DNA of 64,000 nt, taken from a virus. The position numbers and the translations under genes are program-made. The first letter of the stretch is position 1; each line of letters begins with the position of its first letter. Below are positions 13,491-51,505 of this stretch, in pieces. A model generated the notes under the pieces. It was not told where the DNA came from. It was given only the letters and a program-made list of their open reading frames with translations, and made no database searches. The DNA is taken from positions 1-64,000 of IMG/VR virus record IMGVR_UViG_3300036886_000043; one strand, given 5' to 3'.

Positions 13491-13828
13491 CACAACGACG
13501 CCCGCTGACGCGGGCTGGCGGTTTTCGGGAGTCGAAAATGTCTGAGCGATTAGTTTGGTTTGAGGTTCGGGAGAAAAGGCGGTTCCGCTGGCAGTGGTGG
13601 GGCTGGAAGAAGGTTGATGCCAAACCCGTGCCAGAAGATCAAGTCAGTTTTTTCATTCAGATTGCGATGGCTCCGTATGTGCTGCAAGGGGTCGAGTACA
13701 GGTTGAGGTCGGCGTGAGCGGTTTAGGGGAGGGTTAAAATGTGGAATCCGCTTTGCATTGTGTTCGGCCACCGTAAGGTGAGTTGGAAGACGGGATCAAT
13801 TGATTTATTTGAAGTGAAGGACGGAAGG
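13401..13828 (+). repeat. 30-bp exact direct repeat (13401-13430 and 13799-13828)
   Basis: ATTGATTTATTTGAAGTGAAGGACGGAAGG occurs twice. Confidence 0.85.
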
Positions 13829-41247: not shown

Positions 41248-44200
41248 ATGCCGGACGCTGTTTACAAAGAGTACCCTCTCATCTTCCAAAGCAAGGGAAT
41301 CTTCGCCCGCCAGGTCGATGACCTTGTGGACCCGCAAGGGCTTTTGAATGAGGATAATGTTGAGGAGTTGGCAGAAGGCGCTTATGCTCAAAAATTGGGC
41401 AGTGTCCTCGTAAACGCCCAGGGGACCATCGGCCAGCCGGTCTACCCGTTATCGGGGAAAGTGGTCAGCCTATCCAAATTAGGCCAGTTGGCGGGGGCAT
41501 ACGCAAGATATGCGGTTACGGCAGACGGGGCTCTCTGGCGCAGATCGTTGCTTTCGGCGGGGCAGTTCACAAAGATTTCTACATCCTTCAGCGGGAGCCC
41601 TTGCTCGATTCAGTCTTACTGCAACACGGATTTTACCTCAGTATCGACGGAATTTTTTGCAGACGCCGCAGGGATGTTCAAGGACGACGGAACCTTTGCG
41701 GCTCCACAGCAGATGGGCATCTTCCAGCCCCAGTTTCCAGTGCAGGCGCAGGCGCAGCCGCCCTCATCCGTGATACTTGACAACTATGTGACCTCGGCGG
41801 GGAGCTATTCATACACCGGGATCTCTGGAGGAACCAACGCAGGATACGTGAATACGACGATCCCTGCTGGAGTTCCCGCCGCAGGGCTTCAATCGGTAAC
41901 GGTGGTCGATCCTACGCAGCCGGGCCTATTCCAGCTTTTGACTGTTGACTCAGGCGGAAATGCGGAGACGGTCCTTGTCCTCTTAGTGACTCCCACGGGG
42001 TTTGTGGCGAACTTCACAAAGATTCACTCAAGTGGAGTCACGGTCACGAGCGCAGACCTCTCGGTTTCGGTTCCTGCAAGCACTACGGCAACAATAAGTG
42101 CCTCATTCGGCATCCTTCCATGTGGGGCTAAACCGATACTTGTGAACTGGCCCGTTACAAACCAGCCACTACAGCAAGCGGACTACCTTGGCTTGTATCT
42201 TTTTGTCAGTGATCCAACCCAGATACAGAGCATCACGCTCAAGCTCGATTGCGGGGATGGTTCATTCGATAGTGATTATTTCTACAAGGTCATTGCTCAA
42301 GGTCCACTCCAAAATTTGGTATCTTCGGCAACCTCTTCAACAGACCCAACAACTGCATTGACGGACGCGCTCCTGTCAGACAGCCTCAATCTCTACGGCA
42401 ACCAAGCCGGAGGGATCGGTGAACTGAATACCGGGCTCGACAACTGGACACCGCTCCTCTTTCAACTCTCCGACTTTGCCGGCTCAGGCCGTGCGGACTT
42501 CAACGATCCGGTCTACAACTGGGCCAACGTCAACGGCTACCAGATTCAGATTGTCACCAACGACAACACGAGCGTGACGGTCAATCTTGCGGCCCTGGTG
42601 CTCTTTGGCGGAGCCGGTCCAGATACGCTCGGAGGCGTAGCTTACGACTACGTGTGGACGTTTTTCAATCCGGTGGATGGAACAGAGTCAAACCCGTCAA
42701 TGATTGTGACGAACCAGAACCCGCCGAATCAGACGAACCGGGTCTATCCGCGGCGCCAGCCGGTGTTGTTGAACATGGACGTTACCACTTACGGACCATT
42801 AGGGCAGTTGCAAGACGGTCAGATCGGGTATCTGAGAATCTACAGGCGAGGTGGAACACTCGGGGACAACTTCCGAAGGGTAGATCAAATTCCGGTCAAC
42901 ATAGCGGCCGGGGGAATCGTCCAGTACATCGACACAGCGCCGGACTACCTAGTAGCCGGAGCAGATATTGTCTCGTTTACCAACGATGTTCCGGTCCCGA
43001 GCCTACTCCCGGTCCCGGTCAACACGACATTGATGACTCCGATCTATACAGAAAATCAGGTGACGAACGTCTTCCCTGTGTCGATGGCAAACATCTCTGT
43101 GCGCCAGCAGGTAACAATCGGAAGTCCTACTGCAATAGCAAACAACTTTGAAACCGTAATTGTTCTAACCCTCGACGAAGCAAGTTTTACTGCGTTTGTG
43201 CAAAACGCTCATGCGGCTGGAGAGCCGGTACAGGCAAGCTATCAGGTAGGCCAGCCGGTTTATGGAATGGTCATAGCCTTCAACAAGGCATGGTATTGGG
43301 GAGATCCGAATAACCCGTCTACCCTCTACTTCAGCACCGGAAATGCTCCGCAGTACGTGGGAGAGGCGAACAACGTCATTGTCTCCACCCCGGACGACTA
43401 CATCACAACAGTTAAGCCTTACAAGGGAAACATCTTCGTCAGTTGCGTCAAAAGCGGGTGGTGGATGATTCCTCCGGGCTCTCCTGCCAGCCAGCCGCCG
43501 TATCCTACGGCCTGCGTACATGGCTGCGTGGCTCCGTTCGGGGCCGTGGCGACAGAGGAAATGATTCTCTATCAGGCGGCGGACGGAATACGCGCTTTCG
43601 CTGGAGGGGCATCGGAGTATATGAGTCTCCCGATTGAATTCATTTTTCAAGGCGTGGGTTCTACTCCGATTGTCGAAGCGGATCAAACGAAGTTGTCTCA
43701 GACGGTGGCCGCGTATTGGAACTCGATGGTATTTTTCAGCTACATCGGGACGGATGGGAACCGGCATCGAGTGATTGCCCACGCTCAATACAAGAGGTTC
43801 AGGAATGACGACGTGGACGCTCAATGCCTCTTGCTTGAGGCCGACACGAATCAGTTGCTCTATGGAGACTCAAACGGACTGGTTCACATCGACCGTCAGA
43901 ACCTTCCCTATGACCAGGTAAACAGCGGCGGTGTGCTGGCCGCGGGACCGATTGCGATCAATTTGCAAACAGCCTATAGCTTCCAAGGAAGCCCCGCGAA
44001 CCAGAAACAGTATCAGGCCGTTCAGATCGACTGCAACACAGGGGGCCAAACGCTCAACGTCAACCTTCTCTTCAATGATGGAGAGATCACAGTCGCGCTC
44101 GGAACGATCAGCAATGCACAGCGCGGCAAGATCAATCTGCCAGTGAACTTAGGGTTGGGCCAACAGGCGTATAAGATTTCGCTTCAGATCACCGGCAACG

Positions 44201-44589
44201 TGTCTGCCTTCGCGTACCTCTATCAAGCCGCAGTTGAGGCTCTGGTGCTGCCGAGGACGCGGAAAACCGTAGATACCTACGACCTGAATTGCGGATTTGC
44301 AGACTCGAAATACTGCAAGGATTTTTGGGCACAGTACACGGCTACGGCTCCGATCAACGTGCAAGTGTATTATGACGACAACGCAACCCCAGGGTTCACT
44401 TTCACGATGCCTCAAGCCGGAGGCGTCAGGAACCCTCTTAGGGTAAGATTACCGGCAGTCTCATTCAGGACGATCCGCGTGGTAGCGGAATCGACAGGGG
44501 ACTTTCTCTGGTGGCCCGATACCTGTCTTTGGGTCAAGCCCCAGTGCGCTTCGAGGGGCTATGAGAAGGTGTTGATTGTTGAGAACTAA
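41248..44589 (+). CDS. Tail nozzle/tubular protein B-like virion protein
   Basis: 1113 aa beta-rich; Y.Y..TF....GTESNPS, IYRRGGT, LYFS, HGCVAP beta-propeller patterns. Confidence 0.7.
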   Translation: MPDAVYKEYPLIFQSKGIFARQVDDLVDPQGLLNEDNVEELAEGAYAQKLGSVLVNAQGTIGQPVYPLSGKVVSLSKLGQLAGAYARYAVTADGALWRRSLLSAGQFTKISTSFSGSPCSIQSYCNTDFTSVSTEFFADAAGMFKDDGTFAAPQQMGIFQPQFPVQAQAQPPSSVILDNYVTSAGSYSYTGISGGTNAGYVNTTIPAGVPAAGLQSVTVVDPTQPGLFQLLTVDSGGNAETVLVLLVTPTGFVANFTKIHSSGVTVTSADLSVSVPASTTATISASFGILPCGAKPILVNWPVTNQPLQQADYLGLYLFVSDPTQIQSITLKLDCGDGSFDSDYFYKVIAQGPLQNLVSSATSSTDPTTALTDALLSDSLNLYGNQAGGIGELNTGLDNWTPLLFQLSDFAGSGRADFNDPVYNWANVNGYQIQIVTNDNTSVTVNLAALVLFGGAGPDTLGGVAYDYVWTFFNPVDGTESNPSMIVTNQNPPNQTNRVYPRRQPVLLNMDVTTYGPLGQLQDGQIGYLRIYRRGGTLGDNFRRVDQIPVNIAAGGIVQYIDTAPDYLVAGADIVSFTNDVPVPSLLPVPVNTTLMTPIYTENQVTNVFPVSMANISVRQQVTIGSPTAIANNFETVIVLTLDEASFTAFVQNAHAAGEPVQASYQVGQPVYGMVIAFNKAWYWGDPNNPSTLYFSTGNAPQYVGEANNVIVSTPDDYITTVKPYKGNIFVSCVKSGWWMIPPGSPASQPPYPTACVHGCVAPFGAVATEEMILYQAADGIRAFAGGASEYMSLPIEFIFQGVGSTPIVEADQTKLSQTVAAYWNSMVFFSYIGTDGNRHRVIAHAQYKRFRNDDVDAQCLLLEADTNQLLYGDSNGLVHIDRQNLPYDQVNSGGVLAAGPIAINLQTAYSFQGSPANQKQYQAVQIDCNTGGQTLNVNLLFNDGEITVALGTISNAQRGKINLPVNLGLGQQAYKISLQITGNVSAFAYLYQAAVEALVLPRTRKTVDTYDLNCGFADSKYCKDFWAQYTATAPINVQVYYDDNATPGFTFTMPQAGGVRNPLRVRLPAVSFRTIRVVAESTGDFLWWPDTCLWVKPQCASRGYEKVLIVEN

Positions 44590-44615
44590 GGTGTATGCTG
44601 TATCTGAGGTGATTT

Positions 44616-44783
44616 ATGCTCAACATCATTTTGGTAATTCTGATGTTTCTGTGCGGATTTGGCGGATATGCGATCCCAGTTACGCAGCCGGCCGGTTTCC
44701 GGTATGGCGTCGGTCTTCTCGGCGCTGTGCTTTTTATCTTGTTTTGCCTCATCAACCTTGGCCTGATTCACCCAGGGCTATAA
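44616..44783 (+). CDS. Small two-TM membrane protein
   Basis: GAGG RBS; MLNIILVILMFLCG...GLLGAVLFILFCLINLG. Confidence 0.6.
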   Translation: MLNIILVILMFLCGFGGYAIPVTQPAGFRYGVGLLGAVLFILFCLINLGLIHPGL

Positions 44784-44786
44784 GCG

Positions 44787-44951
44787 ATGATTATCTTGCT
44801 CATCATTGTTCTAGTTCTGCTCTTTGGCGGCGGCTTCGGTTACTACGGCCACACTCAATGGGGCGCGAATAACGTCTATGCAGGGCCGGGAATCGGCCTT
44901 GGAACCATCCTGATTATCCTGCTGATTCTGTTCCTGCTCGGCGTCATTTGA
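44787..44951 (+). CDS. DUF3309-like small membrane protein
   Basis: MIILLIIVLVLLFGGGFGYYG...WG...GIGLGTILIILLILFLLG. Confidence 0.65.
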   Translation: MIILLIIVLVLLFGGGFGYYGHTQWGANNVYAGPGIGLGTILIILLILFLLGVI

Positions 44952-45046
44952 GTCGTGTCCGCATGTGCATGTAGGACAGTGTTTAGTCGTTCCCGCTCTG
45001 TGGAAATCTCTCCGGTTGTCGAGAAGGGGTTACTATTCAGGTAGCC

Positions 45047-45075
45047 TTGACGCAAATCATTTTCCGTGCGATGAT
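45047..45075 (+). promoter_or_regulatory. Promoter of tRNA block 1
   Basis: TTGACG-17-GATGAT with TGn extension; ATG 6 nt after the -10. Confidence 0.7.
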
Positions 45076-45081
45076 TTTGAT

Positions 45082-45153
45082 ATGAGATTTGACCGCAACA
45101 GTTTATGCCTCTCCTATTCACTCCTGTCGAGTGACGGGGAGGCTGCGGTCTGA
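45082..45153 (+). CDS. Attenuator leader peptide 1 MRFDRNSLCLSYSLLSSDGEAAV
   Basis: 11 consecutive Ser/Leu/Cys/Tyr codons; precedes terminator and the Leu/Cys/Ser/Tyr tRNAs. Confidence 0.8.
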   Translation: MRFDRNSLCLSYSLLSSDGEAAV

Positions 45154-45180
45154 TTCCAAAGTTTGGAATTTCAGCGAAGC

Positions 45181-45204
45181 GGCCTCCAGAAATGGAGGCT
45201 TTTT
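45181..45204 (+). terminator. Attenuator terminator 1
   Basis: GGCCTCCA-GAAA-TGGAGGCT-TTTT; alternative pairing 45138-45146 with 45179-45187. Confidence 0.85.
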
Positions 45205-45209
45205 GTTGT

Positions 45210-45293
45210 GCGGGATTGGCGAAACGGCAGCCGCGCCCGATTTAAGATCGGGTGTCTTAGGACGTGGGAGTTCAAGTCTCCCATCCCGCACCA
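45210..45293 (+). tRNA. tRNA-Leu(TAA)
   Basis: Cloverleaf, long variable arm, encoded CCA. Confidence 0.9.
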
Positions 45294-45294
45294 T

Positions 45295-45371
45295 GTATCG
45301 GAAGGTAAAGTTTTGGAACCAGTGGTCCGCAAAACCACTTTTAGCCGGTGGGACTCCGGCCCGGTACTCCA
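45295..45371 (+). tRNA. tRNA-Cys(GCA), atypical T-loop
   Basis: GTGGT-CCGCAAA-ACCAC; U73; CCA. Confidence 0.8.
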
Positions 45372-45383
45372 AAGTTTAGTAGT

Positions 45384-45462
45384 GCTCGCGTAGCCCAATT
45401 TGGCAGGAGGCACTTCATTCAAAACGAAGACAGTGCTGGTTCAAATCCAGCCGCGAGTACCA
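45384..45462 (+). tRNA. tRNA-Leu(CAA), short variable region
   Basis: Loop TTCAAAA; TTCAAAT T-loop; CCA. Confidence 0.85.
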
Positions 45463-45470
45463 AAATATGT

Positions 45471-45549
45471 GCCCCGTTAGCCCAATTGGCAGGAGGCGTC
45501 TGACTTAGGATCAGAACAGTGATGAGTTCGAATCTCTCACGGGGTACCA
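45471..45549 (+). tRNA. tRNA-Leu(TAG), short variable region
   Basis: TCTGA-CTTAGGA-TCAGA; CCA. Confidence 0.85.
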
Positions 45550-45593
45550 AAATTTAGATTGCAACGGGTACCAATCTACTGTAAAATATTGGT

Positions 45594-46193
45594 ATGAATG
45601 GTGATTCGAGTATTTGCAATGGATGTGGTTTAAGTGAGCCAGAAGTGAGATTTCGATTGCGGAAGGCGAACGGGAAAACTTACAGAAAACACTTGTGTAC
45701 AAAATGTGATGATGAATATCAAAAGAAGTACACTAAACCTCAAGGCGTAAAAGATAGGAATAGAAAATCGTATCTGAAAAGAAAGGAGAGAAGAGCACGG
45801 GGAGAAATAGTCGAGATTTTCCTTCTTGAGGACTGTCGAAGAATTGACAGAAAAAAAGGTATCAAATCCGATTTAGACTCTGAATATATTGCGGAGATAA
45901 TAAAGGATGGATGCGCGTATTGCGGAGATATAGAATCACGCATTGGGCTTGATCGGATAGATAATTCACTGGGCCACATGAAGGGAAATGTTAACGCCTG
46001 TTGTATGAGATGTAATCTTATTCGTAGGGATATGCCATACGAAGCATGGCTGATTGTAGCGCCCACGATGAAGATTGCGAGAGAATCAAAAGCGTTTGGG
46101 AATTGGAATGTGCTTTTTGGAAACAAGAAGAAAACGGAGCGCGGGCCGGACGATAAGGCAACGGGTTGCTACCCCGCACAGCCGCAAGGCTGA
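45594..46193 (+). CDS. HNH-type endonuclease inside tRNA array
   Basis: CAYCG...GLDRIDNSLGH...NVNACC..CN; AT-rich; own promoter TTGCAA-17-TAAAAT at 45559-45587. Confidence 0.8.
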   Translation: MNGDSSICNGCGLSEPEVRFRLRKANGKTYRKHLCTKCDDEYQKKYTKPQGVKDRNRKSYLKRKERRARGEIVEIFLLEDCRRIDRKKGIKSDLDSEYIAEIIKDGCAYCGDIESRIGLDRIDNSLGHMKGNVNACCMRCNLIRRDMPYEAWLIVAPTMKIARESKAFGNWNVLFGNKKKTERGPDDKATGCYPAQPQG

Positions 46194-46221
46194 CTGAGTT
46201 TGACTCTCAGGCGCTCCGCCA
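46136..46221 (+). tRNA. tRNA-Ser(GCT)
   Basis: Long variable arm, G73, CCA. Confidence 0.85.
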
Positions 46222-46225
46222 GTTC

Positions 46226-46310
46226 GGAAGGTACCGCTGAAAGGTCGGCAAACGGTCCTGAAAACCGTGGCTCCTTCGGGATGGGCGTTCGATTCGTCTA
46301 CCTTCCGCCA
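46226..46310 (+). tRNA. tRNA-Ser(TGA)
   Basis: ACGGT-CCTGAAA-ACCGT; long variable arm; G73. Confidence 0.85.
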
Positions 46311-46315
46311 AGTTT

Positions 46316-46402
46316 GGGAGTGATGCTCTGTAGGGAGAGCAGCAGGCCGTAACCCTGCCGTCACTTGTGGCATAGGGGGTTCGATTCCCTCCACTCCCAC
46401 CA
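46316..46402 (+). tRNA. tRNA-Tyr(GTA)
   Basis: GCAGG-CCGTAAC-CCTGC; long variable arm. Confidence 0.85.
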
Positions 46403-46405
46403 TAC

Positions 46406-46434
46406 TTGTCAACACGGAAGAGTAGTGGTATACT
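46406..46434 (+). promoter_or_regulatory. Internal promoter for fMet/Asp/Glu tRNAs, no leader peptide or terminator
   Basis: TTGTCA-17-TATACT with TGn extension. Confidence 0.7.
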
Positions 46435-46439
46435 GAAAT

Positions 46440-46514
46440 CGCGGGTTGGTAGCGCAGCGTCATACGTCAGGCTCATACCCTGAAGATCCGGTGCAAATCC
46501 GGTACCCGCAACCA
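46440..46514 (+). tRNA. tRNA-Met(CAT), initiator-like
   Basis: C1:A72 mismatch; TCAGG-CTCATAC-CCTGA. Confidence 0.8.
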
Positions 46515-46515
46515 A

Positions 46516-46591
46516 GGTCACGTCGTCTAACTGGAAGGATACTTCCCTGTCTAGGAAGCTGGCGCGGGTTCGATTCCCGTCGTGATCGCCA
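46516..46591 (+). tRNA. tRNA-Asp(GTC)
   Basis: CTTCC-CTGTCTA-GGAAG; G73. Confidence 0.9.
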
Positions 46592-46597
46592 AGTTTA

Positions 46598-46676
46598 GCC
46601 GATGCACTCTGTACTGGATTCGGAGCACTCCCCTTCAAGGAGTTGGATGCGAGTTCGATTCTCGTCGTCGGCGCCA
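46598..46676 (+). tRNA. tRNA-Glu(TTC)
   Basis: ACTCC-CCTTCAA-GGAGT. Confidence 0.85.
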
Positions 46677-46684
46677 AGTTTTAC

Positions 46685-46761
46685 GGGGTCACCGTCTAAT
46701 TGGTCTGGACGCCAGATTCTCAATCTGGAAACTGTGAGTTCGATCCTCACTGGCCCTACCA
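46685..46761 (+). tRNA. tRNA-Glu(CTC)
   Basis: CCAGA-TTCTCAA-TCTGG. Confidence 0.9.
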
Positions 46762-46770
46762 GAAAATGAT

Positions 46771-46799
46771 TTGACAGAAATTGCGAACGGCGGTACAGT
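46771..46799 (+). promoter_or_regulatory. Promoter of tRNA block 2
   Basis: TTGACA-17-TACAGT. Confidence 0.8.
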
Positions 46800-46809
46800 A
46801 GAAAACGAG

Positions 46810-46878
46810 ATGAAAAACCGAGTCAATCACGGATTTACACCAGCGACGGCGCAACCGACGCAGGGTAATCCTATGTAG
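46810..46878 (+). CDS. Attenuator leader peptide 2 MKNRVNHGFTPATAQPTQGNPM
   Basis: Contains codons for all 12 downstream tRNAs; followed by antiterminator/terminator. Confidence 0.85.
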   Translation: MKNRVNHGFTPATAQPTQGNPM

Positions 46879-46903
46879 CGGCTCGTGGAGTTTGAAGCAA
46901 AGC

Positions 46904-46935
46904 GCCCACCGAGCCAATCAGCCGGTGGGTTTTTT
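46904..46935 (+). terminator. Attenuator terminator 2
   Basis: GCCCACCG/CGGTGGGT + T-run; alternative pairing 46880-46888 with 46906-46915. Confidence 0.85.
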
Positions 46936-46943
46936 GTTGATGT

Positions 46944-47019
46944 TCCAGCGTAGCAAAAAGGTAATGCGCCGCACTGTTAATGCGGAAATGTGCAGGTTCG
47001 AGTCCTGCCGCTGGAGCCA
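46944..47019 (+). tRNA. tRNA-Asn(GTT)
   Basis: CCGCA-CTGTTAA-TGCGG. Confidence 0.92.
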
Positions 47020-47028
47020 GTTTGAAGT

Positions 47029-47103
47029 TGCCCGTTCGTTCATGTGGCAGGACGGCTGACTCTGGATCAGCGGAGCGAGGTTCAAGTCCTCGACGGGCAG
47101 CCA
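47029..47103 (+). tRNA. tRNA-Gln(CTG)
   Basis: GCTGA-CTCTGGA-TCAGC. Confidence 0.92.
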
Positions 47104-47111
47104 AGTTTTAC

Positions 47112-47187
47112 AGGGAGATGGCCGAGCGGCTTAGGCGACAGCCTTTGGAACTGTCTCAGGTAGGTTCGACTCCTACTCTCCCTGCCA
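47112..47187 (+). tRNA. tRNA-Gln(TTG)
   Basis: Loop CTTTGGA; G73. Confidence 0.85.
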
Positions 47188-47188
47188 T

Positions 47189-47264
47189 GCGGACGTAGCT
47201 CAATTGGTAGAGCACAGCGTTGCCAATGCTGAGGTTGCCGGATCGTTGCCGGTCGTTCGCTCCA
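47189..47264 (+). tRNA. tRNA-Gly(GCC)
   Basis: CAGCG-TTGCCAA-TGCTG; U73; atypical T-loop. Confidence 0.88.
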
Positions 47265-47349
47265 AATTTTGGAGGTTGACATGCCGCACAGGTATCATTT
47301 CAATGCCGATCTCCGAGAAGTGTACAGAAGGCTGGCGGGACAATTTCGA

Positions 47350-47424
47350 GCACCGTTAGTTGAGTCGGCACAACACGACACTCGTAACGTCGAGGCTCCG
47401 GTTCGAGGCCGGGACGGTGCTCCA
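47350..47424 (+). tRNA. tRNA-Thr(CGT)
   Basis: Loop CTCGTAA; CCA. Confidence 0.82.
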
Positions 47425-47441
47425 GAATTGGAAGGTGAGTG

Positions 47442-47978
47442 ATGAATTTGATGCGGAAGCCGGTATTGCAGTTGAATGCAAGCTACGAGCCGCTTCGCAT
47501 CATCGCGGCAAGAAGGGCATTGACGCTCATAACCAAGGGCGTAGCCGTGGTGGAAGTGCCAACCAGCACAGTAGTCTATCCTGGCATCTACTTGCCCTCA
47601 GTGATTCGGTTGCGGACTTACCGGCATGTGCCTATTAGGATGCAGGTGATGAGCCGCAAGAACATTCTCCTTCGGGATGGCGGCCGCTGCATGTATTGCG
47701 GACAGAGGTCAAACGAATTGACGCTTGACCATGTGATTCCGCGTTCCCGTGGCGGATTGAATACGTGGGACAATCTTGTGGCTTGCTGCAAACGCGACAA
47801 TCACAAGAAGAACGACAGGACTCCAGAGGAAGCGGGAATGAACTTGATTCACAGGCCGCTTCCGCAAACGATCCACACGCCGCGGTTTGTTCTACGGTCT
47901 ATGGGTTTGGAAGTAAATGAGTGGAGCCCGTACTTGTGGGCCGACTCCGAAGGCGACAAGAAGTATGCGTTTAACTGA
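47442..47978 (+). CDS. HNH endonuclease (McrA/COG1403-like)
   Basis: VLQLNASYEP, PSVIRL, RD...CMYCG...TLDHVIPRSRGG..TWDNLVACC...N. Confidence 0.92.
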   Translation: MNLMRKPVLQLNASYEPLRIIAARRALTLITKGVAVVEVPTSTVVYPGIYLPSVIRLRTYRHVPIRMQVMSRKNILLRDGGRCMYCGQRSNELTLDHVIPRSRGGLNTWDNLVACCKRDNHKKNDRTPEEAGMNLIHRPLPQTIHTPRFVLRSMGLEVNEWSPYLWADSEGDKKYAFN

Positions 47979-48050
47979 GCCGGGTGAACATCGAATGTTG
48001 CGGGCGCTTGTATCGCTTGCTAGTGGGTTCGACTCCCACATCCGGCCCCA
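47979..48050 (+). tRNA. tRNA-Thr(TGT)
   Basis: GGGCG-CTTGTAT-CGCTT; short D-arm. Confidence 0.75.
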
Positions 48051-48060
48051 ACAAGTTCAT

Positions 48061-48135
48061 GGGGAATATCGTTCAGCGATAGGACGCTAAGTTGTGGCCT
48101 TAGTCACCGCAGTTTGATTCTGCGTATTCCCCCCA
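48061..48135 (+). tRNA. tRNA-His(GTG)
   Basis: G-1:C73; CTAAG-TTGTGGC-CTTAG. Confidence 0.88.
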
Positions 48136-48148
48136 AGTTTTAAGTAGT

Positions 48149-48223
48149 GGGCGTGTGGTGCTAATGGGAACACATCCGGCCTGCACCCGGAAGTTGAGAG
48201 TTCGATTCTCTCCATGTCCACCA
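48149..48223 (+). tRNA. tRNA-Ala(TGC)
   Basis: G3:U70; TCCGG-CCTGCAC-CCGGA. Confidence 0.9.
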
Positions 48224-48229
48224 AGTTTT

Positions 48230-48305
48230 GCCGACTTAGCTGATGAGGTCATAGCGGTCGCCTGAAGAGCGATAGAAGCCCGCTCGATACGGGCAGTCGG
48301 CACCA
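48230..48305 (+). tRNA. tRNA-Phe(GAA)
   Basis: GTCGC-CTGAAGA-GCGAT. Confidence 0.88.
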
Positions 48306-48306
48306 T

Positions 48307-48384
48307 CGGTGTGTAGCGTAGTCTGCTTAACGCGCTCCGTTCGGGACGGAGAGATCGCAGGTCGAAATCCTGCCACGCCGACCA
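48307..48384 (+). tRNA. tRNA-Pro(CGG)
   Basis: CTCCG-TTCGGGA-CGGAG. Confidence 0.9.
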
Positions 48385-48390
48385 GTTTAC

Positions 48391-48464
48391 CGGGGTGTAG
48401 TGTAAAGGAAACATCCGTGGCCTGGGACCACGTGTTGGGCTTTCGAGATGCCCCACCCCGACCA
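48391..48464 (+). tRNA. tRNA-Pro(TGG)
   Basis: CGTGG-CCTGGGA-CCACG. Confidence 0.82.
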
Positions 48465-48470
48465 ATTTAC

Positions 48471-48545
48471 GGCCCGTTCGTTCAATGGACAGGACTTCGG
48501 ATTACGAATCCGACAATCAGAGTTCGACTCTCTGGCGGGCTACCA
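48471..48545 (+). tRNA. tRNA-Arg(ACG)
   Basis: TCGGA-TTACGAA-TCCGA. Confidence 0.92.
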
Positions 48546-48546
48546 C

Positions 48547-48575
48547 TTGCAAGAAAAGAAAAGTTGATGTACAGT
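48547..48575 (+). promoter_or_regulatory. Promoter of tRNA block 3
   Basis: TTGCAA-17-TACAGT; ATG 7 nt after the -10. Confidence 0.75.
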
Positions 48576-48582
48576 GGAATTC

Positions 48583-48651
48583 ATGCAGATCAGGACCAAA
48601 CACGGAATAACCAGAATGACCAAGCGGGTCATTTGGGGGATCGTGTGTTGA
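48583..48651 (+). CDS. Attenuator leader peptide 3 MQIRTKHGITRMTKRVIWGIVC
   Basis: Contains codons for all 12 downstream tRNAs; stop codon overlaps antiterminator strand. Confidence 0.85.
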   Translation: MQIRTKHGITRMTKRVIWGIVC

Positions 48652-48677
48652 GGGTCTGAGCATTTTGGTACGCACAG

Positions 48678-48702
48678 ACCTTCGCTCAGGCGAGGGTTTT
48701 TT
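48678..48702 (+). terminator. Attenuator terminator 3
   Basis: ACCTTCGC-TCAG-GCGAGGGT + T-run; alternative pairing 48650-48658 with 48675-48683. Confidence 0.85.
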
Positions 48703-48718
48703 ATTGCTCTTTGAAAAT

Positions 48719-48793
48719 AGGGGAGTGCTGGCGGCACAGCGGTTGGTCTCCAAAACCAACGTCACGGCGGTTCGAGTCCGCTCTCCCCTGCCA
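48719..48793 (+). tRNA. tRNA-Trp(CCA)
   Basis: TTGGT-CTCCAAA-ACCAA; G73. Confidence 0.85.
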
Positions 48794-48798
48794 TTTTT

Positions 48799-48867
48799 GG
48801 CACGTACCCAAGGCGGGAAGCGATCCTCATAAGATCGTAAACTGGTTCGAGTCCAGGCGTGCTACCA
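48799..48867 (+). tRNA. tRNA-Met(CAT) elongator (or Ile2), compact D-arm
   Basis: CGATC-CTCATAA-GATCG. Confidence 0.72.
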
Positions 48868-48872
48868 GTTTT

Positions 48873-48966
48873 GGGCGATAGCACCGGCCGTGCGGCGGAG
48901 TCTTATAAACTCTGGAGAGCGCCAGATTAGCGCAACGGGAAGGATCGACACCTTCATCGCCTACCA
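48873..48966 (+). tRNA. tRNA-Ile(TAT) with long variable arm
   Basis: GGAGT-CTTATAA-ACTCT; extra GCGC/GCGC stem; CCA. Confidence 0.72.
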
Positions 48967-48969
48967 TGT

Positions 48970-49044
48970 GGGTCGCAGATGTTTTTGGCGGCATACCCGG
49001 CTCTTACCCGGAATGGCGGGGTTCGACTCCCCGGCGACCCACCA
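48970..49044 (+). tRNA. tRNA-Lys(CTT)
   Basis: Loop CTCTTAC. Confidence 0.85.
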
Positions 49045-49053
49045 TCTGTTTTC

Positions 49054-49127
49054 GGACTGCGAGTGTGATGGTGCATAACGCCCTTTTAAGGCGTTTGGAT
49101 AGAGTTCGATTCTCTAGCGGTCCACCA
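49054..49127 (+). tRNA. tRNA-Lys(TTT)
   Basis: ACGCC-CTTTTAA-GGCGT. Confidence 0.85.
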
Positions 49128-49128
49128 T

Positions 49129-49203
49129 GGCCCTATAGCTCAAGGGGATAGAGTGCGGTCTTCTAAGCCGTCGATCACCGTTCGACTCGGTGTAGGGCTC
49201 CCA
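49129..49203 (+). tRNA. tRNA-Arg(TCT)
   Basis: GCGGT-CTTCTAA-GCCGT. Confidence 0.9.
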
Positions 49204-49208
49204 GTTTT

Positions 49209-49285
49209 GCCGCTGTATCTCTCCGGTTTCCTAAACCGGCAAGAGTAGTTGGATGACGCCGGTTCGACTCCGGCCAGCGGCCCCA
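49209..49285 (+). tRNA. Non-canonical tRNA-Arg(CCT) lacking a 5' D-arm
   Basis: 7-bp acceptor, 7-nt linker, CCGGT-TTCCTAA-ACCGG, 18-nt extra region, canonical T-arm, CCA. Confidence 0.7.
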
Positions 49286-49290
49286 GGTTT

Positions 49291-49368
49291 GCTGCCGTAT
49301 TCGGTTCTGGTTCCGAACCAGAGGGCCGTAGATGGAGAAGGCAGGTTCGAGTCCTGTCGGCAGCGCCA
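49291..49368 (+). tRNA. Non-canonical tRNA-Arg(CCG) lacking a 5' D-arm
   Basis: 7-bp acceptor, 8-nt linker, TCTGG-TTCCGAA-CCAGA, 18-nt extra region, canonical T-arm, G73, CCA. Confidence 0.7.
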
Positions 49369-49373
49369 GTTTA

Positions 49374-49449
49374 GCCGGGTTCGCCCAAAGGCTTAGGGCC
49401 GATGGTCTACACCCATCTGATAGGGGTTCGAGTCCTCTACCCGGCACCA
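49374..49449 (+). tRNA. tRNA-Val(TAC)
   Basis: GATGG-TCTACAC-CCATC. Confidence 0.88.
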
Positions 49450-49454
49450 AGATT

Positions 49455-49528
49455 GTCGATGTAGCTCAGTGGTAGAGCACCGCAATGGTAATGCGGCGAC
49501 GAGGGTCCGATTCCCTCCTTCGGCTCCA
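49455..49528 (+). tRNA. tRNA-Thr(GGT)
   Basis: CCGCA-ATGGTAA-TGCGG. Confidence 0.88.
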
Positions 49529-49532
49529 TTTT

Positions 49533-49607
49533 GCCGATGTAGCTCAATGGCAGAGCATTCGCTTGATAAGCGAAAGGTCAGTGGATCAGTACCACTCATC
49601 GGCACCA
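49533..49607 (+). tRNA. tRNA-Ile(GAT)
   Basis: TTCGC-TTGATAA-GCGAA; atypical T-loop. Confidence 0.88.
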
Positions 49608-49613
49608 AGTTGA

Positions 49614-49688
49614 GCGGGATTAGCCAAGTGGAAAGGCAATGGGCTTCCAACCCATTATGCGTCGGTTCAACCCCGACATCCCGCTCCA
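49614..49688 (+). tRNA. tRNA-Gly(TCC)
   Basis: ATGGG-CTTCCAA-CCCAT; U73. Confidence 0.92.
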
Positions 49689-49719
49689 CTTTTCTGCCAA
49701 CAAGCGTTATACTACTTTC

Positions 49720-50655
49720 ATGCCGAAGTCGCCCAAACTCGGAAAGATTACATTCTCCTCTTTGTCTCTTCCAGAGCAAATCCAGATGAGCAACTTGCAG
49801 GATGCCGTGAACATCCTCGGCGGTCATTCGGGGGAAGTCGAGTTAAGCAATCATCTAAACCTCGGCGGGAACAAAATAACGAACGTGGCGGCGCCGGCCG
49901 CGGATAGCGATGTGTTGACGAGCGGAGCGGCAGAAACAAAGTATTCCGCGGCGGCTTTACGTCCGCAGCTTGAGTCGAGCGGGACGCATCCATTCGTAGG
50001 CTACAGACAAGTCAATAATCAAGGACAGCGCGAAAAAACCTCAAGCTGGCTCAACGAGCTTCTCTCTACCCCTCCGAACTCCAACAACATCAATCCCATC
50101 GTCAGTTCTTCGGGAGGCTCAACGAGCGTCACGATCCCGGCCAGCATCTTGCAGATGGGGGATGGAACCACGCGATACCTTCCTTCGCGGACGGACACGT
50201 TGACCAACCCGGCAAGCTACTCCATTACCTCGTTTACGATTGCTTTGGGAGTGGCAACGGTGGTTTTGTCCTCGACTCCATCGCCGGCTTTGGCTGCGCC
50301 TACGGTGGTGTACATTTCAGGGACGAGTGAGATTGACGGGACGTTCCCGATTGCAAGCATTGTCAGCCCGACGACGTTCACGATCAACGTAAGCAGTGGG
50401 GTGTCTGGCACTGGAGGGACGGTAGAGACGGGAGGAATCTGCTACTATTACCTCAACAAGTCATTCCAGAAGGTGATGCTATCCGTCCTTCCGTCATCTT
50501 CAGACACCCCGTTTAGGCGTCTCGGAATTTCTGGAGACGGATACCAGTTGCTTGCGGTTGTCAGCATCAATTCGAGCGGAACTGTCCAAGTGGGGACGGC
50601 CGGAGGGGGAACGCCGAGCGTCGTTAGCACAGCCAATGCAGGAAGCAGGTTCTAA
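49720..50655 (+). CDS. Probable tail/fiber-associated virion protein
   Basis: LNLGGNKITNVAAP motif; Ser/Thr-rich beta domain. Confidence 0.6.
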   Translation: MPKSPKLGKITFSSLSLPEQIQMSNLQDAVNILGGHSGEVELSNHLNLGGNKITNVAAPAADSDVLTSGAAETKYSAAALRPQLESSGTHPFVGYRQVNNQGQREKTSSWLNELLSTPPNSNNINPIVSSSGGSTSVTIPASILQMGDGTTRYLPSRTDTLTNPASYSITSFTIALGVATVVLSSTPSPALAAPTVVYISGTSEIDGTFPIASIVSPTTFTINVSSGVSGTGGTVETGGICYYYLNKSFQKVMLSVLPSSSDTPFRRLGISGDGYQLLAVVSINSSGTVQVGTAGGGTPSVVSTANAGSRF

Positions 50656-50840
50656 TGGGAATTCGAATTACAAAAGAACAAGAAGTCCATGATGGAGAAA
50701 AGCTATGGCGCATCAAAGCAACATGGGACTCTAAGCATGGAGGAACTGAATCTCATGTACGTTTTGCCAAAACTCTAGTTGCGCAGCGAAGGATAGTCTA
50801 CGGATTTAAGATGAAGTTCCGTATGGGGGAGTACGACTGA
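50655..50840 (+). CDS. Hypothetical protein
   Basis: TAATG coupling. Confidence 0.5.
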   Translation: MGIRITKEQEVHDGEKLWRIKATWDSKHGGTESHVRFAKTLVAQRRIVYGFKMKFRMGEYD

Positions 50841-50860
50841 TCCAAAAATCAGGAGGAAAT

Positions 50861-51505
50861 ATGGAAACGAAAATTCTCGAAGCGGTTGAAACGAGTAAGA
50901 TGTCAGTTTGTTCACCAGTCAAAGTATGGAAGTTCCCAGAACCGGGAAAGAACTACATCTTGTCGGCAGACCCCTGCTTGGGGACTGAAACAGATAGCTC
51001 CAATGCCGCAATCGAAGTAATTGATGCGGAGACTGGGGAACAGTGTGCAGAGTTTGCTCAGGTGGTGTCTCCTGAAAACCTAGCACCGATAATCTTCGAT
51101 TTGGCGAAGAGATACAATAATGCGGAAGTGGCGGTAGAGGTAAACAGTGTCGGCATGTTGACGAACAAACTCCTGATTCACAAGTTTAATTACGAAAACA
51201 TCTACCGCTTCAAACGGCTTGATCGCCTTCAAAATACCATGACGGACATCGTTGGATGGTGGACCGATTACAAGTCTAAGGCGCAAATGGAAGCCATATT
51301 CAGGGATTTTTTGGGGAATAATATAGGATTGATCCACAGTAAAAAATTGCTAAATGAGATTCTTTTCTACAACGAAGATAGTCCTAAACCGAATGATCGG
51401 TTTGCAGCCATGATGATTGCTCTGGCCGTTCGGGACGAGTTACTGAAGTCTAGGGCTTCTATTCTGAAGGCAGAAGAGAAGATGAGGAATAGGGGAGTGG
51501 ATTGA
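50861..51505 (+). CDS. Stand-alone terminase nuclease-domain paralog
   Basis: Aligns by eye to the TerL C-terminal domain: AVEVNS.G, IYRFKR.DRL...MTDIVG.WTDYKSK; AGGAGG RBS. Confidence 0.85.
   Translation: METKILEAVETSKMSVCSPVKVWKFPEPGKNYILSADPCLGTETDSSNAAIEVIDAETGEQCAEFAQVVSPENLAPIIFDLAKRYNNAEVAVEVNSVGMLTNKLLIHKFNYENIYRFKRLDRLQNTMTDIVGWWTDYKSKAQMEAIFRDFLGNNIGLIHSKKLLNEILFYNEDSPKPNDRFAAMMIALAVRDELLKSRASILKAEEKMRNRGVD

Follow-up and report, generated by a model that had tools for sequence, protein, structure and literature searches.

The tRNA array and its leader units

The window analyzed here is a 64,000-nucleotide stretch of viral DNA. It forms the opening 64 kb of a phage genome of 97,230 bp that is complete and has direct terminal repeats. 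Its tRNA array, at 45210-49688, comprises 36 tRNAs with three leader/terminator units of the same layout. The first of these, unit 1, has a short open reading frame (ORF) and an intrinsic terminator directly ahead of the first tRNA gene. The parts of unit 1 are listed below.

45047-45075, plus strand: sigma-70-type promoter, with a -35 box at 45047-45052, a 17-nt spacer, and a TG-extended -10 box at 45070-45075 (9/12 matches)
45082-45153, plus strand: leader ORF of 23 codons plus TGA, with an ATG start; homologous ORFs occupy the same place in 10 other contigs
45091-45123, plus strand: strand 1, the 5' arm of the 1:2 hairpin, from the fold
45100-45132, plus strand: control-codon run of 11 Ser/Leu/Cys/Tyr codons (codons 7-17)
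45129-45150, plus strand: strand 2, with the antiterminator strand as its core (45138-45146), immediately before the stop codon at 45151
45152-45170, plus strand: small palindromic hairpin inside the antiterminator loop; its motif recurs genome-wide
45179-45187, plus strand: strand 3, which pairs with 45138-45146 and overlaps the 5' arm of the terminator
45181-45205, plus strand: intrinsic terminator, with an 8-bp stem and GAAA loop (45181-45200) and a T tract (45201-45205)

Behind the terminator stands the following block, which ends at an unattenuated promoter with its own tRNAs.

45210-45293, plus strand: tRNA-Leu(TAA), called by ARAGORN at default settings
45295-45371, plus strand: noncanonical tRNA-Cys(GCA), recognized only visually, from its folding, and from homologous Cys tRNAs that are called in relatives
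45384-45462, plus strand: tRNA-Leu(CAA), called by ARAGORN at default settings
45471-45549, plus strand: tRNA-Leu(TAG), called by ARAGORN at default settings
45559-45587, plus strand: promoter-like site, with a -10-like box 6 nt before the ATG of the inserted ORF
45594-46193, plus strand: putative HNH-like ORF that interrupts the block; relatives lack such an insert here
46136-46221, plus strand: tRNA-Ser(GCT), called by ARAGORN at relaxed settings
46226-46310, plus strand: tRNA-Ser(TGA), called by ARAGORN at relaxed settings
46316-46402, plus strand: tRNA-Tyr(GTA), called by ARAGORN at default settings
46406-46434, plus strand: unattenuated promoter
46440-46514, plus strand: initiator-type tRNA-Met (C1:A72 mismatch), followed by Asp, Glu, and Glu tRNAs to 46761

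Default ARAGORN and Rfam did not call the Cys gene or either Ser gene of this block. With the relaxed settings, folding, and homology added, the downstream set named by an earlier first-pass annotation of this DNA (three Leu, one Cys, two Ser, and one Tyr) is recovered in full. The tRNA-Cys(GCA) of the window genome has a C at position 33 and odd D and T arms, and it may be defective. The inserted ORF at 45594-46193 is called HNH-like on our own reading of its sequence only, since Pfam returned no match for it. It overlaps tRNA-Ser(GCT) by 58 nt. In three relatives (L005, L001, and G001), the Ser tRNAs stand directly behind the Leu tRNAs with no inserted ORF. The promoter-like site in front of the insert may transcribe the two Ser genes and the Tyr gene independently of the attenuator. 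The first-pass annotation had counted the genes up to the next unattenuated tRNA promoter as the regulated set; that promoter does exist at 46406-46434, but the site at 45559-45587 may already bypass the attenuator, so the boundary holds only in part.

The two sister units have the following coordinates.

46771-46935, plus strand: sister unit 2, with a promoter, an ORF at 46810-46878, and a terminator at 46905-46935
48547-48705, plus strand: sister unit 3, with a promoter, an ORF at 48583-48651, and a terminator at 48676-48705

Unit 2 precedes tRNAs for Asn, Gln, Gln, Gly, Thr, Thr, His, Ala, Phe, Pro, Pro, and Arg, and unit 3 precedes tRNAs for Trp, Met, Ile, Lys, Lys, Arg (three), Val, Thr, Ile, and Gly. 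A conserved box, CTCTTTGA plus a few bases, lies at 48706-48718 between the unit 3 terminator and tRNA-Trp. It recurs at the same place in L005, L116, G002, and G003, and in L005 and G002 it is -35-like.

Several other observations concern the array as a whole. Some of its tRNAs depart from the usual form: Arg(CCT) and Arg(CCG) (49208-49282 and 49290-49365) have no normal D arm and a long segment after the anticodon arm, Thr(TGT) (47979-48058) has a 7-bp anticodon stem, and Ile(TAT) (48873-48966) is 94 nt long. Default ARAGORN calls the last of these and misses the other three. L005 and L116 have counterparts of the Arg and Thr(TGT) genes, G001 has one of Arg(CCT), and G003 has one of Arg(CCG). 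A second endonuclease-type ORF in the array (47439-47978) matches HNH in Pfam, and such ORFs stand elsewhere in the array in relatives. A short ORF at 47281-47443 begins at a promoter-like site between tRNA-Gly and tRNA-Thr(CGT) and extends across the tRNA; on visual comparison, the start is similar to a small ORF (about 13568-13708) of L111, a contig without the array. The half-motif AGTTT often trails tRNA 3' ends within the array. In the close relative L005, a gene for the RNA ligase RtcB (L005:18185-19414; Pfam E value, 2.5e-69) lies between block 2 and unit 3; no rtcB gene was found in the 97,230 bp of the window's own genome. Finally, the array of a 134-kb relative (contig G001) includes a tRNA with the anticodon UCA, which would read UGA (L129:6923-6993, minus strand). 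ARAGORN calls it SeC, and it could be an opal suppressor.

Alternative folds and the proposed switch

The RNA of unit 1 is far more structured than its composition requires. The fold of 45060-45210 has an energy of -63.5 kcal/mol (z = -5.7), which none of 200 shuffles equaled. Its main element is the 1:2 hairpin between 45091-45123 and 45129-45150, which alone is worth -32.2 kcal/mol. The terminator, at -15.4 kcal/mol including an extension, closes 5 nt upstream of tRNA-Leu, so that unit 1 satisfies the attenuator criterion of an intrinsic terminator placed between leader and regulated genes. With strand 1 taken away, the minimum-energy fold is the 9-bp antiterminator, 45138-45146 with 45179-45187. 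The long 1:2 hairpin, this same antiterminator, and a GAAA-capped terminator had all been proposed in the first-pass annotation, and the folds bear out each of them. It had also held that failure of the antiterminator to form with strand 1 masked would refute its reading; the antiterminator does form under that condition.

The two competing structures are closely balanced. Without strand 1, and with the RNA folded up to base 45200, the antiterminator fold has -32.9 kcal/mol and the terminator fold -32.4 kcal/mol; the terminator is favored, by 1 to 3 kcal/mol, only when the T tract is free to pair. Because the two are nearly isoenergetic (about 0.5 kcal/mol apart), the switch must be kinetic. 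According to these modeled energies, it would work only if the antiterminator, which is made earlier, is kinetically trapped. The switch of the trp attenuator is likewise kinetic.

An equilibrium scan of ribosome stalls on the full-length RNA did not separate the two states: the terminator had a probability of 0.72 to 0.97 at every stall, and it was dominant in some orthologues too. The scan was redone on a transcript cut before the 3' arm of the terminator, mimicking the order of synthesis. On the cut transcript, the 5' arm of the terminator is paired with strand 2 with a probability of 0.85 to 0.88 for stalls at codons 2 to 15, and this pairing drops to 0.35 with the ribosome at the stop codon. 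The antiterminator is worth -10.6 kcal/mol, compared with -4.9 ± 2.3 kcal/mol for shuffles of the same stretch (P = 0.03), and only -3.2 kcal/mol with the ribosome at the stop. Moreover, the antiterminator outperforms shuffles in all six unit 1 orthologues tested (P ≤ 0.033), and its energy falls below the shuffle mean in 16 of 17 units. In the folds, unit 1 therefore meets the attenuator criterion of a mutually exclusive antiterminator that depends on ribosome position.

The small hairpin at 45152-45170 was considered as a specific part of the switch and rejected, because it carries a motif that recurs throughout the genome (23 copies) and that unit 1 of distant relatives does not have. Most likely, then, it plays no part in the switch. 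The motif is the palindrome CCAAAnTTTGG, often extended to 15 bp, and its 23 copies in 97 kb (window positions 538 to 60637 and beyond) include the one at 45154-45168 in unit 1. Most copies fall just before gene starts, between a stop codon and the next ribosome-binding site, and the palindrome is repeated in related contigs too. It could be a site for a regulator or a signal for RNA processing.

Taken together with the layout of the unit, the folds suggest the following sequence of events. Transcription would begin at, or one base from, the ATG at 45082, and a ribosome would load onto the nascent, probably leaderless, RNA. If the Ser, Leu, Cys, and Tyr codons are decoded quickly, the ribosome would reach the stop codon at 45151 and cover strand 2, allowing the terminator to form and ending the transcript, at a length of about 124 nt, 5 nt before tRNA-Leu. 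If no ribosome loads, strands 1 and 2 would pair, and the terminator would form as well. If instead a matching aminoacyl-tRNA is scarce and the ribosome stalls at codons 7 to 15, strand 1 would be covered and strand 2 left free to pair with the emerging 5' arm of the terminator, and the polymerase would continue into the Leu, Cys, Leu, Leu, Ser, Ser, and Tyr genes. The new tRNAs would then relieve the stall. Such a unit would be a negative-feedback gauge of decoding capacity, opened by a shortage of any one of its inputs. That the terminator functions in the host, an unknown bacterium that probably lives in soil or peat, is inferred, as is the response to tRNA supply.

Codon-to-tRNA matching and its conservation

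Relatives of the window genome were gathered via the neighboring 1113-aa protein and three short DNA patterns, after which the regions were fetched. Unit 1 was found in 11 phage contigs, the window included (10 if the nearly identical L005 and L001 are merged), and 9 of the 11 carry all or nearly all of the array. The identity of the 1113-aa protein to the window copy extends down to 53%, a figure that refers to contigs reached through this protein only. Because the genomes are related, counts pooled across them are not independent. Five further contigs (L002, L003, L004, L109, and L111) encode the same 1113-aa protein and have one or zero tRNA at the array position, from which we infer that the tRNA array and its attenuators form an accessory module. 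The array of G003 has rearranged blocks, one of them inverted, and every leader still precedes its own block. The only cultured relatives that we found, two phages of Tunturiibacter (Acidobacteriota), appear distant by sequence: the 1113-aa protein is 23% identical to a virion structural protein of theirs, and a DNA search gave no matches beyond tRNA. Pfam searches of the neighboring proteins returned nothing except HNH.

Evidence that the leaders are tied to the genes behind them comes from the match between codons and anticodons, which is observed in all three units. Under standard wobble, leaders 1, 2, and 3 cover 6/7, 12/12, and 12/12 of the tRNAs of their own blocks and few of those of other blocks, and 41 of the 64 leader codons are read by their own block. 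When codons were shuffled among the three leaders, 15.8 ± 2.8 tRNAs were covered, compared with the 30/31 observed, and 0 of 50,000 shuffles reached the observed value. Against genome codon usage, coverage has P values of 0.02, 4e-4, and <5e-6 for units 1, 2, and 3, respectively. When default ARAGORN calls only are used, 24/25 are covered. Five other genomes show the same matching over their three units (31/31, 29/30, 29/30, 23/25, and 32/33), and no shuffle reaches the observed value in any of them; for the unit 1 leader, coverage in relatives is 7/7, 9/9, 9/9, 4/5, and 9/9.

For unit 1 of the window, the earlier claims of 11 consecutive Ser/Leu/Cys/Tyr codons and of cognate codons for six of the seven tRNAs, with none for Leu(CAA), both hold. 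Codons 7 to 17 exceed every other run of this kind in the 97,230-bp genome, all six frames considered, and about 0.02 runs of that length would be expected. The leader is thus enriched in codons tied to the regulated product, a second criterion of attenuators. Taken alone, the statistics of unit 1 are modest (P = 0.006 to 0.02). Under strict wobble, the block reads 8 of the 22 leader codons, or 11 if the U34 Leu and Ser tRNAs read whole boxes, which makes unit 1 of the window genome statistically the weakest of the three; TCC and CTC need such four-way reading by U34 tRNAs. Also, most control codons are present once or twice, with no long single-codon runs, and so the sensitivity to any single tRNA may be low.

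The codon match by itself does not say which signal such a machine reads. The same anatomy would be compatible with sensing of amino acid starvation through uncharged tRNA, as in his and trp, rather than of how large the tRNA pool is; in that case, starvation would simply turn on the tRNA genes, and a stalled ribosome cannot distinguish an absent tRNA from an uncharged one. We consider this unlikely, because the leaders discriminate among isoacceptors. For Thr, Gly, and Arg, the placing of a codon in leader 2 or leader 3 follows the location of its anticodon in block 2 or block 3 (5:1 versus 0:8 in the window and 29:8 versus 6:34 over six genomes), which points to tRNA species and not to amino acids. 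Moreover, extra tRNA does not relieve an amino acid shortage, so that the feedback would be pointless, and the tRNA ligase gene rtcB inside a relative's array fits a context of tRNA damage. Sensing of tRNA supply thus remains the preferred reading of the signal.

Any such reading requires that the leader be translated, which is inferred from its start signals and not observed. The ATG lies 6 nt past the -10 box, and the predicted transcript start falls on it or one base from it (45082), so that the unit 1 transcript is predicted to be leaderless. No Shine-Dalgarno box is present at the unit 1 leader. The same promoter layout (-35, 17 nt, nAnnnT, and 6 to 7 nt to the start codon) is found in 13 of 18 units of relatives, and units whose 5' ends are longer carry boxes that resemble Shine-Dalgarno sequences. 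At the level of sequence, the unit 1 leader therefore satisfies a further criterion of leader-peptide attenuators, a short ORF that can be started where the transcript begins.

The missing Shine-Dalgarno box and the modest statistics of unit 1 leave some room for another account, in which the ORF is not translated and the unit is no more than a promoter followed by a structured 5' leader with a leaky terminator, serving as an insulator, a processing platform, or a small RNA. The codon match would then be an accident of base composition: strand 1 is pyrimidine rich, pairs with a purine-rich strand 2, and so favors Leu, Ser, Tyr, and Cys codons. However, frames +1 and +2 of the same leader DNA match the tRNAs only at the null level, and codons for Phe and Pro, which are equally pyrimidine rich, are missing from the control run. 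The two sister leaders differ greatly in composition, and yet each covers its block completely. In addition, the start codon, the frame, and the position of the stop are kept in divergent relatives; indels within the leader ORFs are in frame, and the distance from stop to terminator is 25 to 31 nt in 15 of 17 units. An untranslated ORF is accordingly a still poorer candidate than starvation sensing. That the ORFs instead encode small peptides with functions of their own, with their place before tRNA blocks incidental, is very improbable. Residue order is partly conserved among relatives in leaders 2 and 3, but RNA pairing of the same bases explains that order equally well. Unit 1 peptides diverge strongly in both order and length, from 18 to 32 residues, yet the Leu/Ser/Tyr/Cys set is retained, and three unrelated peptides would each have to mirror the neighboring tRNA set.

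The antiterminator helices vary in sequence between genomes, with complementarity retained. A MAFFT alignment of ten unit 1 sequences was too poor at the terminator for column-wise covariation, and a swap test was used instead. Exchanging terminators between genomes weakens the antiterminator: for unit 1, 1 of 20,000 permutations equals the native pairing, and for units 2 and 3, the corresponding value is about 0.02. Judged from these sequences, strand 2 appears to co-evolve with the terminator arm.

Some differences in the tRNA content of the blocks, as far as can be told from the called genes, are mirrored in the leaders. G002 lacks both tRNA-Cys and the Cys codon in its leader, and it likewise lacks both Thr(GGT) in block 3 and the Thr codon in leader 3. 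In G003, Arg(GCG) replaces Arg(ACG), and CGC replaces CGA in the leader. Other changes are not mirrored: L116 and G003 retain ACC in leader 3 without a Thr(GGT) in block 3, and L254 has Cys codons and no called tRNA-Cys. The co-variation thus appears imperfect, and for tRNA-Cys and its codon the pattern is mixed, with G002 for and L254 against.

Interpretation and relation to known systems

We propose that unit 1 is a trp-type transcription attenuator, in which ribosomes on a leader-peptide ORF control entry into a block of phage tRNA genes, and we put the probability of this reading at roughly three in four. The first-pass annotation had reached the same reading, which is strengthened here by codon-matched sister units, by the conservation of unit 1, and by the apparent co-evolution of strand 2. 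The support is computational throughout, and no RNA or ribosome data are available.

With more reserve, we lean toward a general form of this idea, in which these phages carry a modular homeostat of their own tRNA supply. Each suboperon would be preceded by a leaderless test ORF with one codon for every encoded tRNA, isoacceptors distinguished, and a shortage of any of these tRNAs would open it, for example, when host tRNAs are cleaved by defense nucleases or after host shutoff. The initiator tRNA would be left to a separate, unattenuated promoter. L005 and G003 likewise have a tRNA-Met preceded by such a promoter, and we infer that this arrangement fits the logic of the homeostat, because stalling in elongation cannot report a shortage of initiator.

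What phages gain from tRNA genes and how these genes are expressed is a long-running question, for which the current answers are codon compensation and escape from tRNA-cleaving defenses. If our proposal is true, the phage gauges decoding capacity directly and makes tRNAs on demand. The leader sequence would then state which tRNAs matter, offering a simple test of the phage tRNA question, and the partition of Thr, Gly, and Arg isoacceptors would be a signature that amino acid sensing cannot explain. It would also extend textbook attenuation to RNA genes, where both the class of target and the logic of sensing would be new, and synthetic biology would gain a compact, programmable sensor for the level of each tRNA.

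A full-text literature search found no account of leader-peptide attenuation of tRNA genes. The nearest paper concerns the long tRNA array of Anabaena sp. PCC 7120, which is silent and is induced when translation is impaired (PMC8421152). Its control was ascribed to direct promoter repeats and a supposed repressor, with no mention of attenuators, leaders, or terminators (PMC8421152). Accessory tRNA arrays such as that of Anabaena are associated with rtcB (PMC8421152), a link that is shared with the phage arrays through the rtcB gene inside the array of L005.

Among regulators that couple the state of tRNA to readthrough of a terminator by means of an antiterminator, T-box riboswitches are another point of comparison. 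A T-box binds uncharged tRNA directly, through a specifier codon and the T-box sequence, and does so without a ribosome or an ORF, whereas the phage unit would sense tRNA by means of a translated ORF. An Rfam cmscan of 43000-51500 (E ≤ 1) returned only tRNA-type and chance matches, with no Trp, His, Leu, or Thr leader and no T-box (RF00230).

The closest likeness is to the leader-peptide attenuators of enterobacteria (trpL, hisL, leuL, and pheL and the multivalent thrL and ilvGMEDA leaders). Shared features include a short ORF rich in control codons, the 1:2, 2:3, and 3:4 pairings, an intrinsic terminator just upstream of the regulated genes, and a finishing ribosome that blocks strand 2 from the stop codon. 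The multivalent thr and ilv leaders also resemble phage unit 1 in that several kinds of codons are read by one unit. There are differences too. The phage unit samples 7 tRNA species (12 in the sister units), mostly with one or two codons each; its mRNA is probably leaderless; its owner is a phage; and it has no sequence similarity to the enterobacterial leaders, as judged by Rfam leader families at E ≤ 1. Above all, a remaining criterion of such attenuators, that the regulated genes serve amino acid biosynthesis or transport or encode synthetases, is not met, as the phage units regulate tRNA genes. An attenuator acting on tRNA genes thus departs from the ordinary members of this family in its target.
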